Virus record (IMG/VR): IMGVR_UViG_3300030389_002325
Reading direction: 5' to 3' (one strand)
DNA from: an uncultured virus (IMG/VR IMGVR_UViG_3300030389_002325)
Taxonomy: Duplodnaviria > Heunggongvirae > Uroviricota > Caudoviricetes > Crassvirales
DNA length: 20,000 bases
Position numbers and translations under genes: made by a program. This document shows positions 12,393 through 17,424 of this stretch, piece by piece (within the stretch, counting starts at the first letter, position 1; the number at the start of each line of letters is the position of its first letter). The notes under the pieces were generated by a model. The model had not been told where the DNA came from. It was given only the letters and a program-made list of their open reading frames with translations, and made no database searches.

Positions 12393-12549
12393 TTTTTTTA
12401 GATTTTGTTTGATTATACGCCTTTTTTAACTCGGCGATTTGAGTTTGACACTTTCTTATTTGTTCTTTATTACCTCTTTCTTGATAGAATTGTGTCCAAG
12501 AATACAAGTTTTGTAGTTGTTTGGTAATTGTTTGTTGTTGTTTACTCAT
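12379..12549 (-). CDS. Hypothetical protein (56 aa)
   Basis: Hand translation MSKQQQTITKQLQNLYSWTQFYQERGNKEQIRKCQ...KNGKV*. Its ATG begins in the last bases of element B. Confidence 0.65.
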   Translation of the reverse strand: MSKQQQTITKQLQNLYSWTQFYQERGNKEQIRKCQTQIAELKKAYNQTKSKKNGKV

Positions 12550-12645
12550 ACCACGAAAAGCCCATACCCTGCAGAGTATGAGCTAGTGCGAGCGATGTCT
12601 TAAGCTTCTCGCGATAGTTGCAACATGTGACTAACACTATCCGTG
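12548..12645 (-). ncRNA. Structured RNA element B (multi-hairpin)
   Basis: Stems GATAGT/ACTATC, GCGAG/CTCGC and AGCTCATACTC/GGGTATGGGCT, with possible closing CACG/CGTG. The 3' 21-mer is shared with element A. Confidence 0.55.
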
Positions 12646-12651
12646 TTTTAC

Positions 12652-14334: not shown

Positions 14335-14360
14335 AGTTATTTAATTTAATTAGTTTATAT

Positions 14361-14392
14361 TATTATCCGACACTTGTCGTAATTAGTTTGTA
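14361..14392 (-). promoter_or_regulatory. 32-bp early motif, copy 5
   Basis: TACAAACTAATTACGA-CAAGTGTC-GGATAATA. Confidence 0.8.
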
Positions 14393-14508
14393 GCCCGGAG
14401 AGGAATCGAACCTCTCGTCCAACCATTCAGGCTATGTGTAGTCATATGTTCGTATTATTTTCTAACTCGCTAAAGTATGACTATCAACTACGAGTCGAGC
14501 TTAAGCTC
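14391..14508 (-). ncRNA. Element C: putative H-type pseudoknot plus tRNA-like minihelix (acceptor stem and T-arm only)
   Basis: TAGCCTG-AATGGTTGGAC-GAGAGG-TTCGATT-CCTCTC-CGGGCTA, preceded by interleaved pairings GACTCGT/GCGAGTT and TAGTCATA/TATGACTA. Confidence 0.6.
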
Positions 14509-14511
14509 ACT

Positions 14512-14748
14512 TTATTTTATTTCAGCTAAATCTCTACAGAATTTTGGAACTGTATTTGAATTAGTGTATGATTTGTATTGTTGAAAACATGGCATAGTTT
14601 CAAACTTTTCTTGAAATATTGAATAAATTTCATCATGGTCATAAGTAAATGTAACATTTTTATTATTAGTGAAAGTTATTACAGTATTTGTACCTAAAAG
14701 TGACTTTCTGATTACAAATCTTTTTGTTGTTAGTTTATTAGTTTTCAT
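14512..14748 (-). CDS. Hypothetical protein (78 aa)
   Basis: ORF track. Downstream of motif copy 6. Confidence 0.75.
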   Translation of the reverse strand: MKTNKLTTKRFVIRKSLLGTNTVITFTNNKNVTFTYDHDEIYSIFQEKFETMPCFQQYKSYTNSNTVPKFCRDLAEIK

Positions 14749-14791
14749 ATTTATTTTATTTTATTTATTATTAATTTAGTTTAGTTTATTA

Positions 14792-14823
14792 TATTATCTT
14801 AATTAGTTCGTATTTAGTTTGTA
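14792..14823 (-). promoter_or_regulatory. 32-bp early motif, copy 6
   Basis: TACAAACTAAATACGA-ACTAATTA-AGATAATA. Confidence 0.8.
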
Positions 14824-15490: not shown

Positions 15491-15529
15491 GGGCATAACA
15501 CTTTACTTCTAAGTATCTAATCAAAAAGT

Positions 15530-15573
15530 GTGACATTAGCCTTATAAGTAGTATAATAAGGGGCAATTGTCAC
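15530..15573. promoter_or_regulatory. Operator-like inverted repeat, site 2
   Basis: GTGACATTAG-N24-CAATTGTCAC. Counterpart of 8748-8791. Confidence 0.65.
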
Positions 15574-15619
15574 TATACTTCAATGTAAAAACGAGTAAAA
15601 TTATGTAATATACTAAAAT

Positions 15620-15850
15620 ATGGCAAAATTGAGTAAAGTAGCTGCTAAACGTAAAGCAATAAGAGACAAGAAAGCGGCTATGACGCCAGATAGAAAGGCT
15701 AAAAAAGCAGAAAACCAGCGTAAAAGGCGTAAAGCTATAAAACAAGGTAAAAATATTCGTGGTAAGGACTATGATCACAAGACTAAAAAGTTCACATCGA
15801 TAAAAAATAACCGCGGTAACCGTGGTAAAGGCACTAAAAAAGAAAAATAA
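15620..15850 (+). CDS. Small very basic protein with degenerate HNH-like motif
   Basis: K/R-rich. GKDYDH...SIKNNRG resembles the DxDH...NR pattern of minimal phage HNH proteins. Confidence 0.65.
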   Translation: MAKLSKVAAKRKAIRDKKAAMTPDRKAKKAENQRKRRKAIKQGKNIRGKDYDHKTKKFTSIKNNRGNRGKGTKKEK

Positions 15851-17424
15851 TGGCTATAATATACACATATCCAGTAAAAAACACTCCAGCAAATGATGAT
15901 TTAATACTTATATCAGACTCTGCAGACAGTAATAAGACTAAACAAGTAAAAATATCTAGTCTACCAGGTGGTGCATCTTCTGGTGTTACTCAAATTATAG
16001 CTGGAACTAATGTTACTATTGATCCAGTCAGCGGTCTTGGTAGTGTTACTATAAATTCTTCAGGAGGAGGCGATACATATACGCTACAGGCGGAAGCTAA
16101 GTCTAGTAATTCAGTACCTTTAAAACTAGATGCAGCAACAGGAACAGACTCTACAGTAAATTTAACAGAAGGTAGTGGTGTTACTTTAACTAGAAATAGC
16201 GCAACAGAAATAACTATAGCAGCAACGTCAGGTGCAATGGCTATTGAAAATAATGGATCAGCGTTGGCATCTGGAATCACAACATTAGATTTTTCTACTA
16301 ACTTAACACCTGTATCAGCAGGGCCTGGAAGTAATAAAGTTACTATTACTTCAACAGATACTACTTACAATGCTATGGATGCCTCAACTCTAGGTTTAGG
16401 CAAGTTAAGATATGCTACAGGATCTACTCCAGCAGCAGAATCACAAAGTACAACTGCAAATAGAACTTACGGTGTAACTGCAAATAGTTCTAATCAACTT
16501 GTAGTTAACGTTCCCTGGACAGATACTAGTGGTATTTCTTTTTCTGGAAGTACTGCAAATGGTGTAGCTACTTATTCTAGTGCTACTACAGCTAATGTAT
16601 CTGCTAATTTAACTTTTGCTACTAATACGCTTACATTAACTGATACTTTAGATATAAAAGGTGATGGTACTAATCCAGGTACACTTAATTTATACTGCGA
16701 AAGCACAAGTACGCCACATGCTGTTAGTATATTAGGTCCTCAACATTCAGGCGCTACTCCATACTCTATAAGACTACCTAAAGAAATAGCAACTCAGACG
16801 GCGTATTCTTCAGGAGGTAGAGTGCTAGAATCAAATGCTTCAGGAGCATTGCAATGGATAAATACTCCAAGTGCAGGAGTTAGTCCAACTAGTGGTACTT
16901 GGTATGCTACTCTAGCTAACGCTTCTGGACAGTCATATGCTTCTAATGCTACTCAAGCTCAAATAGCTATAACTACTAATAATTGTCAGTGGTATAGAGT
17001 TGGTGACATGATGTATTATCAGTTCTATATAGCAGGAACTGTAAAAGCAGGTGGAGCTTTAACAGGTAATTTATTTCTTTGTAGATCAGCTACTTCTATT
17101 GCAACTGATACTATTACATATGGATTACCTATAGATAGTAGTTATAATACTGTAGTAAATAATGGCTTTTGTAATGGCAGTATAACAATAACAGAAAGTG
17201 AAGCGCCTGCACAGCCTTTAACATGGACTTATCCTGTTAATGGAGGAAGAGTAGGTAGAGACACTAGTTATGCTGGATATGTACAATTGTTTAGTCTTTT
17301 TGGTAGTGGTTCAACTAATAAAGTATATTATCCACTATCTAATCAAACTTGGGTAACAGCCGGTGAAGCACCCGGAAACTTTGCTTTGGGCGGAACAATA
17401 AATGCTTTAGTAACTCATCAATAA
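15850..17424 (+). CDS. Tail fibre / virion structural-like protein (524 aa)
   Basis: Ser/Thr/Gly/Ala-rich beta-type sequence. N-terminal YP...DDLILISD...TKQVKI anchor-like module, GVTQIIAGTNVTI and VVNVPWTDT segments typical of phage fibres. Confidence 0.7.
   Translation: MAIIYTYPVKNTPANDDLILISDSADSNKTKQVKISSLPGGASSGVTQIIAGTNVTIDPVSGLGSVTINSSGGGDTYTLQAEAKSSNSVPLKLDAATGTDSTVNLTEGSGVTLTRNSATEITIAATSGAMAIENNGSALASGITTLDFSTNLTPVSAGPGSNKVTITSTDTTYNAMDASTLGLGKLRYATGSTPAAESQSTTANRTYGVTANSSNQLVVNVPWTDTSGISFSGSTANGVATYSSATTANVSANLTFATNTLTLTDTLDIKGDGTNPGTLNLYCESTSTPHAVSILGPQHSGATPYSIRLPKEIATQTAYSSGGRVLESNASGALQWINTPSAGVSPTSGTWYATLANASGQSYASNATQAQIAITTNNCQWYRVGDMMYYQFYIAGTVKAGGALTGNLFLCRSATSIATDTITYGLPIDSSYNTVVNNGFCNGSITITESEAPAQPLTWTYPVNGGRVGRDTSYAGYVQLFSLFGSGSTNKVYYPLSNQTWVTAGEAPGNFALGGTINALVTHQ

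Follow-up and report, generated by a model that had tools for sequence, protein, structure and literature searches.

The window, a 20,000-nt stretch of an uncultured virus genome (IMG/VR record IMGVR_UViG_3300030389_002325), is AT-rich phage DNA that encodes a primase-helicase, a ligase, a sigma factor, a thymidylate synthase, and GroEL/GroES, as identified by a PHROGs search. The best cultured match of the primase is to a Cellulophaga phage (42%), and Tenacibaculum and Flavobacterium phages are among the next, so the host probably belongs to the Flavobacteriales. Four related records, each estimated to be at least 98% complete, span 63–68 kb. Here, we investigated a pseudoknot located 16 nt past the stop codon of a 78-aa gene, P0001, close to where the leftward arm begins. 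Downstream of the knot lies a tRNA-like minihelix, which runs into a repeated promoter-like element. The knot sits in a variable early region, and the genes downstream of it vary among relatives. The features of the locus are as follows, in minus-strand order.

14777–14823, minus strand: promoter-like repeat of family D2 upstream of the 78-aa gene, a putative promoter
14512–14748, minus strand: 78-aa early gene P0001, tightly linked to the knot, with no family or fold match
14497–14508, strand not assigned: 12-nt palindrome, a strain-level feature outside the conserved motif
14490–14496, minus strand: 5' strand of stem 1 as first described
14496, minus strand: G that adds a seventh stem 1 pair in this strain only
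14490–14495, minus strand: conserved part of the stem 1 5' strand (4 of 6 pairs changed on both sides in 47 homologues)
14484–14489, minus strand: loop 1, putative major-groove third strand, near-invariant in alignments A1 and A2
14486–14488, minus strand: conserved GUU of loop 1, predicted to form triples
14476–14483, minus strand: 5' strand of the outer part of stem 2, covarying
14472–14474, minus strand: UUU, junction part of stem 2, pairing with GAA at 14449–14451 (paired in 47/47 copies; common to all subtypes)
14465–14470, minus strand: conserved 3' strand of stem 1, first described as 14464–14470, covarying
14447–14463, minus strand: A-rich loop as first described, 17 nt
14452–14464, minus strand: A-rich loop 3 after refinement, ~12 nt, with a conserved A run
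14439–14451, minus strand: 3' strand of stem 2, made of GAA, a 2-nt internal loop, and the outer strand (14439–14446)
14435–14438, minus strand: 4-nt link from knot to minihelix, or 5 nt ending in U (14434–14438)
14388–14434, minus strand: tRNA-like minihelix with acceptor stem, GG-containing linker, T stem, canonical T loop, and A-C-A-A
14346–14392, minus strand: promoter-like repeat of family D2 overlapping the 3' end of the minihelix

Elsewhere in the window, a 524-aa Thr/Ser/Gly-rich protein without a PHROGs or Pfam match is encoded at 15850–17424 on the plus strand and is possibly a virion fiber. A GC-richer non-coding stretch at 12540–12650 on the minus strand has no Rfam match and may be another structured RNA. 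Carriers of the knot are abundant ocean phages, probably of Flavobacteriales. Phage fragments (L245–L249) also occur in genome bins labeled Chloroflexota, Ilumatobacteraceae, Rhodobacteraceae, and Bacteroidetes, which is probably binning contamination.

The original prediction placed an H-type pseudoknot here, and all of its element coordinates, including those of the first stem 1 strand, the first stem 2 strand, and the loop, were correct on the minus strand when checked against the sequence. Stem 1 is 5–6 bp in homologues, and stem 2 extends via an internal loop into three further pairs (UUU/GAA). The A-rich loop 3 is present as proposed, but not at its 17-nt length: since stem 2 continues into the UUU/GAA pairs, the true loop is ~12 nt. 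The single window sequence is only modestly unusual, because dinucleotide shuffles of the 77-nt region form a 7 + 8-bp H-type knot in 15 of 2,000 cases and a 6 + 8-bp knot in 63 of 2,000. In ViennaRNA, whose fold model does not include knots, the region forms stem 2 and the minihelix.

Homologues were drawn from gene loci (73, 48, and 80 in three sets) and from DNA pattern searches. Alignment A1 holds 47 distinct copies of type A, the type found in the window. In A1, 94.1% of cells are paired versus 33–45% in slid controls, a percentage inflated by filtering the copies for pairing and drawn from related copies whose cells are not independent events. Pairs changed on both sides number 9 of 16 (4/6 in stem 1 and 5/10 in stem 2), and the covariation score is 0.392, whereas shuffles give 0.131 and slid controls no more than 0.059. 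As an unbiased control, we used a pattern describing the loops only, which gave 118 loci. Both stems form at 55 of these. A P0001-type gene lies upstream of 48 of the 55, the other seven having short flanks, and of none of the 63 loci that do not pair. Two U·G pairs are nearly invariant among the 47 copies of A1, which indicates an RNA on the minus strand. The interleaved stems are thus both kept and both covary in homologues, and the H-type fold is almost certainly real.

Two other parts of the prediction are not conserved. A switch had been suggested in which GTAGTTG pairs with TGACTAC instead; it is unsupported, because this alternative helix is 72% paired and its two outer pairs fail to form in 22 and 38 of the 47 copies. 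The palindrome named in the prediction was found in only two other contigs, both close relatives. We regard the switch and the palindrome as strain-level features.

The subtypes of the knot have a common descriptor: a stem 1 of 4–6 bp, a loop 1 with GUU, the outer stem 2, UUU, the 3' strand of stem 1, the A-rich loop 3, GAA, and the 3' strand of the outer stem 2. Type A has an internal loop in stem 2 with invariant bases around it. Type B has an uninterrupted 8-bp stem 2; its 16 copies are 97.6% paired, with two-sided change at only 2 of 13 pairs. Hybrids that combine stem 1 of A with stem 2 of B, found at 10 of 16 loci, link the types. A model based on A1 finds one strong copy in the window and one strong type A copy in each of five related records (5/5).

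The GUU of loop 1, the UUU, and the GAA are conserved in all subtypes. We infer that GUU lies parallel to GAA and, in the stem 2 major groove, forms two U·A-U triples and one G·G-U triple, and the H-type core probably contains a U·A-U triple helix. In L055, all three partners of one triple change together, from U·A-U to C·G-C. Support for the triples comes from this one sequence, since in L270 a C-G swap in the pair occurs without a matching change in the loop. By analogy with SAM-V (PMC6061858), the A run of loop 3 may make A-minor contacts in the minor groove of stem 1.

As the prediction had stated, the knot could not be assigned to a known family. Rfam searches returned only a chance U6 match elsewhere in the window (E up to 5) and no match at eight loci (E up to 10). 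A blastn search of cultured phages returned short matches only, most of them over the T arm. A description of the motif was absent from the literature searched; it may be an unnamed candidate of Fremin et al. 2023 (PMC10690425). On the comparative evidence, we consider the knot a real, conserved, uncatalogued phage RNA family, which adds a well-covarying family absent from Rfam.

The protein encoded upstream has 385 relatives at E up to 0.001 among 50% representatives. Its model has a pLDDT of 85.8. Fold searches gave no significant match, with a best Z score of 3.3, which does not show a new fold. No family match was found in PHROGs or Pfam, nor any match among cultured phages. The P0001 domain also ends longer proteins, one of which, with a close relative from Robertkochia, has a Swt1-like HEPN domain. 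Two fusions have weak matches to the GreA C-terminus, and others are HNH-like or glycosylase-like by eye. Fusions P0097, P0106, P0117, P0131, P0134, P0138, and P0142 carry HEPN or other enzyme-like domains in bacterial-type loci, some of which adjoin tRNA genes or a methylase-like gene. A captured toxin-antitoxin origin is unsupported: no knot was found beside 13 bacterial-type fusion genes carrying the P0001 domain or in 150 other Bacteroidota genomes with 35 candidates scored in each, and the protein family was absent from 400 further ones that were searched.

The promoter-like repeats of family D2 occur in at least six copies between 12.0 and 15.4 kb. Among 488 repeats in relatives, open-frame ATGs peak 6 nt past GATAAT, a −10-like hexamer, and 26 of the 28 ATGs there are open, which supports a promoter role. 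The repeat at 14777–14823 is the likely source of a transcript carrying the knot. In the copy that overlaps the minihelix, the spacer (14368–14379, minus strand) is a small palindrome with compensatory variation among close relatives, a candidate hairpin or operator.

The minihelix resembles the top half of a tRNA, and its fold in the window has a z score of −2.1. In its 13-bp form, 7 of 13 pairs are changed on both sides among 18 copies, which were selected for full pairing. The 33 distinct cores all have 11–13 stacked pairs and a canonical T loop, and nearly all have the linker GG. With position −1 assigned to the first U of the 13-bp form, 33/33 end in A-C-W-A. Hairpins consisting of an acceptor stem plus a T arm are cleaved by RNase P, whose ruler counts 12 bp from the T loop (PMC11143913). 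In one Bacteroidetes family, RNase P RNA was found in all of the 13 genomes searched. Given the core pairs, the T loop, the A-C-W-A ends, and the 12-bp ruler, a cut between 14434 and 14433 is likely, and host RNase P probably cuts at the 5' edge of the mimic. The gap from knot to mimic is at most 8 nt in most copies, and the predicted cut would leave ~3–8 unpaired bases past the knot in most of them, near or below what bacterial 3' exonucleases need for loading. Overhang lengths for these enzymes were not found in the part of PMC3997798 available.

ARAGORN found nothing in the window. The minihelix linker resembles, by eye, the two ends of a Bacteroidetes tmRNA. Unlike tmRNA, the locus has no tag ORF, the knot is 5' of the mimic and not inside it, and the loop 1 of pk1 is short. 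The tmRNA model had no match in three of four phage records and scored 10.8 bits in the fourth versus a cut-off of 47. A tmRNA remnant is possible as the origin of the minihelix only. At L259, L261, L263, L270, L277, L412, and L308, we saw larger tRNA-like RNAs that keep this acceptor, GG linker, and T arm but carry inserts of ~25–100 nt; L308 has a G3·U70-like pair and a weak tmRNA score.

We then compiled 99 distinct contexts of the knot, counted after 10 loci and 4 single sites judged to be chance descriptor matches were removed by eye and with L386 and L398 added by pattern. A P0001-type gene lies 7–471 nt upstream in 95/99, and the other four have short flanks. On the upstream side, the gene stop lies within 45 nt of 61 knots, a promoter-like repeat precedes 24, another knot precedes 7, and the remaining 7 are unclassified. 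On the downstream side, a tRNA-like element is present in 46 contexts, a lower bound as a few mimics were missed. Six are followed by another knot, three by a long hairpin, and one by a hammerhead-like core; nothing was recognized in 38, which include the few missed mimics, and the flank is cut off in 5.

Among the 24 promoter-adjacent copies, the mimic is absent in 19 and stem 1 starts 7–25 nt past the −10-like hexamer. A mimic-less subset of such copies (15 distinct sequences) still has 8 of 14 pairs changed on both sides. Promoter, knot, and mimic follow one another with no intervening ORF in L057, L390, and L391. Knots also occur as six tandem pairs, five of which combine two different subtypes. 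The knot is a module separable from the minihelix, because of these promoter-adjacent copies, the tandems, and the covariation that persists without the minihelix. The mimic in turn occurs without a knot in some relatives.

The knot is present at 41/73, 21/48, and 7/80 of the gene loci. A gene-independent scan (16 loci) yielded 10 further copies, all with the gene upstream and a tRNA-like element downstream, and scans run without regard to the gene recovered the knot nowhere but next to it. In relatives, the slot after the gene may be occupied by a canonical hammerhead fold, a long hairpin, the minihelix without a knot, or an unrelated knot of smaller size; one gene slot thus swaps between a tRNA mimic, a hammerhead, and a long hairpin. 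A quick tree was built on 72 columns after 21 of the 56 knot-less rows had been dropped at random; its loose mimic label has false positives, and we read it only qualitatively. In this tree, the more divergent clades carry knot and mimic together.

Several other elements were seen in this slot. Canonical type I hammerhead folds lie directly after the stop of P0001-family genes at L065:1735–1786 and L279:1031–1082, below Rfam cut-offs (L279 scored 28.8 bits against the RAGATH-1 hammerhead, cut-off 56.3). L165 has a less regular hammerhead-like core just 3' of the knot. Just after the P0001-family stop, L067, L073, L074, L076, L077, and L079 carry a second knot-like motif, which is smaller (~30 nt), has short stems, and comes nearer to toxI in size.

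The original prediction proposed that the knot protects the 3' end left on the mRNA after minihelix excision, analogous to MALAT1/mascRNA. The adjacency to a tRNA-like minihelix holds in 46/99 contexts, but the proposal is too narrow, as copies also occur without the minihelix, in tandem, and next to promoters. Working like a MALAT1/mascRNA cassette nonetheless remains the most likely role, and we tentatively favor protection of the new 3' end as the main job of the knot. The two structures, their covariation, and their linkage are the established part of this reading. The rest is a predicted pathway, from transcription through RNase P cleavage and triple formation to protection. An early transcript would carry the 78-aa gene, the pseudoknot, and the mimic of the tRNA top half. 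Host RNase P, measuring ~12 bp from the T loop, would cut at the 5' edge of the mimic and leave an mRNA that ends a few bases past a compact H-type knot, with loop 1 in the major groove of stem 2 and putative G·G-U, U·A-U, and U·A-U triples there. The knot would then block 3'-to-5' exonucleases, so that the first early mRNA survives the cut, and the knot itself might remain as a stable ~55-nt RNA. In copies that have lost the mimic, decay starting at other downstream cuts would be halted by the knot. Five metatranscriptome runs contain a small share (0.04–0.18) of the words of the region, a measure of word sharing that says nothing on expression.

The cassette reading is favored because it explains the commonest arrangement, which the weak tree also places in the more divergent clades, and the swap with other cleavage elements. 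At the MALAT1 and MEN-beta 3' ends, a triple helix is followed by a tRNA-like element that RNase P cuts (PMC7583470). The phage locus is similar in that a probable triple-helical element lies directly 5' of a tRNA-like structure, and an RNase P cut would leave it terminal. It differs in being from a phage and not a vertebrate, and in having an H-type knot with about three putative triples in place of a U-rich internal loop with 10 triples (PMC7583470). The A-rich end is blunt and buried in MALAT1 and MEN-beta, whereas the phage RNA would have a short overhang and its 3' end outside the triplex. The phage knot also often lacks a mimic. It is not a member of MALAT1/mascRNA or of any other family tested. 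If the cassette reading is right, phages independently evolved the MALAT1/MEN-beta logic, with a tRNA mimic that recruits RNase P and a triple-helical element that guards the end. The 110-nt cassette would be fully testable and might serve as a tool for giving RNAs in Bacteroidota a defined and stable 3' end.

Several observations fit protection poorly. Relatives of the gene often have no knot, and the mimic is also found alone. A plain hairpin normally protects a bacterial 3' end, so the invariant loop bases exceed what protection needs. The covariation without a mimic, the ORF-less promoter-knot-mimic arrays, and the tandem subtypes are poorly explained by a cassette and favor a free RNA.

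The close rival to the cassette is accordingly a decoy RNA: a trans-acting small RNA made at the start of infection, its 5' end set by a promoter or mRNA decay and its 3' end by RNase P, that would act as an antitoxin mimic and neutralize a host defense protein like pseudo-ToxI of phage phiTE. We consider this specific form doubtful. The three ORF-less arrays, selection that persists without the mimic, six tandem pairs of which five join different subtypes, invariant loop bases, and the location in a variable early region all speak for it, and expanded pseudoknot mimics provide a precedent (PMC3594212). Like the knot, the type III antitoxin RNAs toxI, cptI, and tenpI and pseudo-ToxI are small H-type knots with an A-rich loop (PMC13682666, PMC3594212, PMC12283969), and they too come in tandem non-identical copies with a phage-borne precedent (PMC3594212). 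However, loop 1 is ~7 nt here versus 1 nt in cptI and tenpI and 4–5 nt in toxI (PMC13682666). No ToxN-family toxin gene was found among 32 ORFs searched with PHROGs or 14 with Pfam, nor a minus-strand terminator downstream. A search of 150 other Bacteroidota genomes, with only 35 candidates scored per genome, revealed no host counterpart, the only five matches in genome contigs were short phage-like fragments, none lies beside the bacterial-type P0001-domain genes, and a 5' cut is not evident in most copies. In a broader form, the knot would be a free anti-defense RNA, the first that the phage makes, released by RNase P through the tRNA mimic and diversified through tandem subtypes, that neutralizes an immune protein or soaks up an immune signal in a riboswitch-like triple-helix pocket. 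This is possible, if far from assured, and it would represent a naturally evolved family of RNA decoys with its own maturation cassette, widespread in abundant ocean phages. Protection and a free RNA can both be true; promoter-adjacent knots would also be part of transcripts that read through from upstream promoters, and protection is then possible there too.

It is unlikely that the knot is a nascent-RNA antiterminator, bound to RNA polymerase close to where the long early and replication arm begins, in the manner of HK022 put or Bacillus EAR. The single strong type A copy in each of 5/5 records is always near the arm start, stem 1 begins 7–25 nt past the −10-like hexamer in 24 copies, and put is likewise a structured RNA of similar size (~65 nt) near the start of an early transcript (PMC8632103). 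Put is a double hairpin and not a knot, though, and the phage knot is usually followed by a cleavage element (PMC8632103 for put). Cleavage at an RNase P site immediately 3' of the knot would sever the tether, the downstream genes have their own promoter-like repeats, and no minus-strand terminator was found in 13.8–15.6 kb.

A binding site for the 78-aa protein, serving autoregulation or a two-part ribonucleoprotein, is distinctly unlikely as well. Such a role is consistent with the 95/99 copies within 471 nt of the gene, with gene-blind scans that found the knot only beside it, and with fusion of the P0001 domain elsewhere to Swt1-like HEPN and other nucleic-acid-enzyme-like domains. Against this, 73 of 80 gene copies in one clade have no knot, the bacterial-type fusions lack one, and the linkage may only reflect a shared position at the early-arm start.

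The original prediction had also offered an unclassified ribozyme or aptamer, for which we found little support, and we consider both a novel self-cleaving ribozyme and a small-molecule aptamer folded like SAM-II/SAM-V, whether riboswitch or signal sponge, improbable. SAM-V combines an H-type knot, a third strand of 7 nt, a pair of U·A-U triples, and an A-minor loop (PMC6061858), an architecture that the phage knot shares with SAM-II/SAM-V if its putative triples form. Type A also has invariant bases around its internal loop, and hammerheads occupy the same slot in relatives. Unlike SAM-II/SAM-V, the knot lacks the bulged U with which the P2 3' strand forms the SAM triple; an invariant G precedes the two As. 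There is also no Rfam match and no link to sulfur genes or a ribosome-binding site. Stem 2 of type B is uninterrupted, so that no ligand-pocket-like internal loop is common to all subtypes. No Rfam model of a known self-cleaving ribozyme matches over the knot, which has only two helices and usually accompanies a cleavage element in place of substituting for one. The alternative helix is not conserved, and the downstream genes vary.

Stimulation of stop-codon read-through or frameshifting in the upstream gene is very improbable and was rejected: stem 1 does start 7–9 nt past the stop in 19/60 contexts, a spacing similar to that of retroviral read-through signals, but spacers range over 7–36 nt in all three frames, the stop is TAA in 47/60, extensions have medians of 5–8 codons, an in-frame slippery site occurs in only 2/60, and promoter-adjacent copies have no upstream stop. 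An xrRNA-like 5'-to-3' block also seems unlikely, because the RNase J C-terminal domain was not found in the 61 Bacteroidota genomes searched.

Further recurrent elements were observed in these regions. A long imperfect hairpin with conserved ends, possibly an RNase III site, occurs in the early region at 15527–15574 (minus strand) of the window, in L049–L054, L057, and L060, and in many others. A conserved hairpin-like element lies directly upstream of the knot in one clade (L269, L271–L273, and L282). Finally, an intergenic 10-nt word in either orientation and a conserved 17-nt hairpin recur in L081–L095, L292–L300, and L345–L394.
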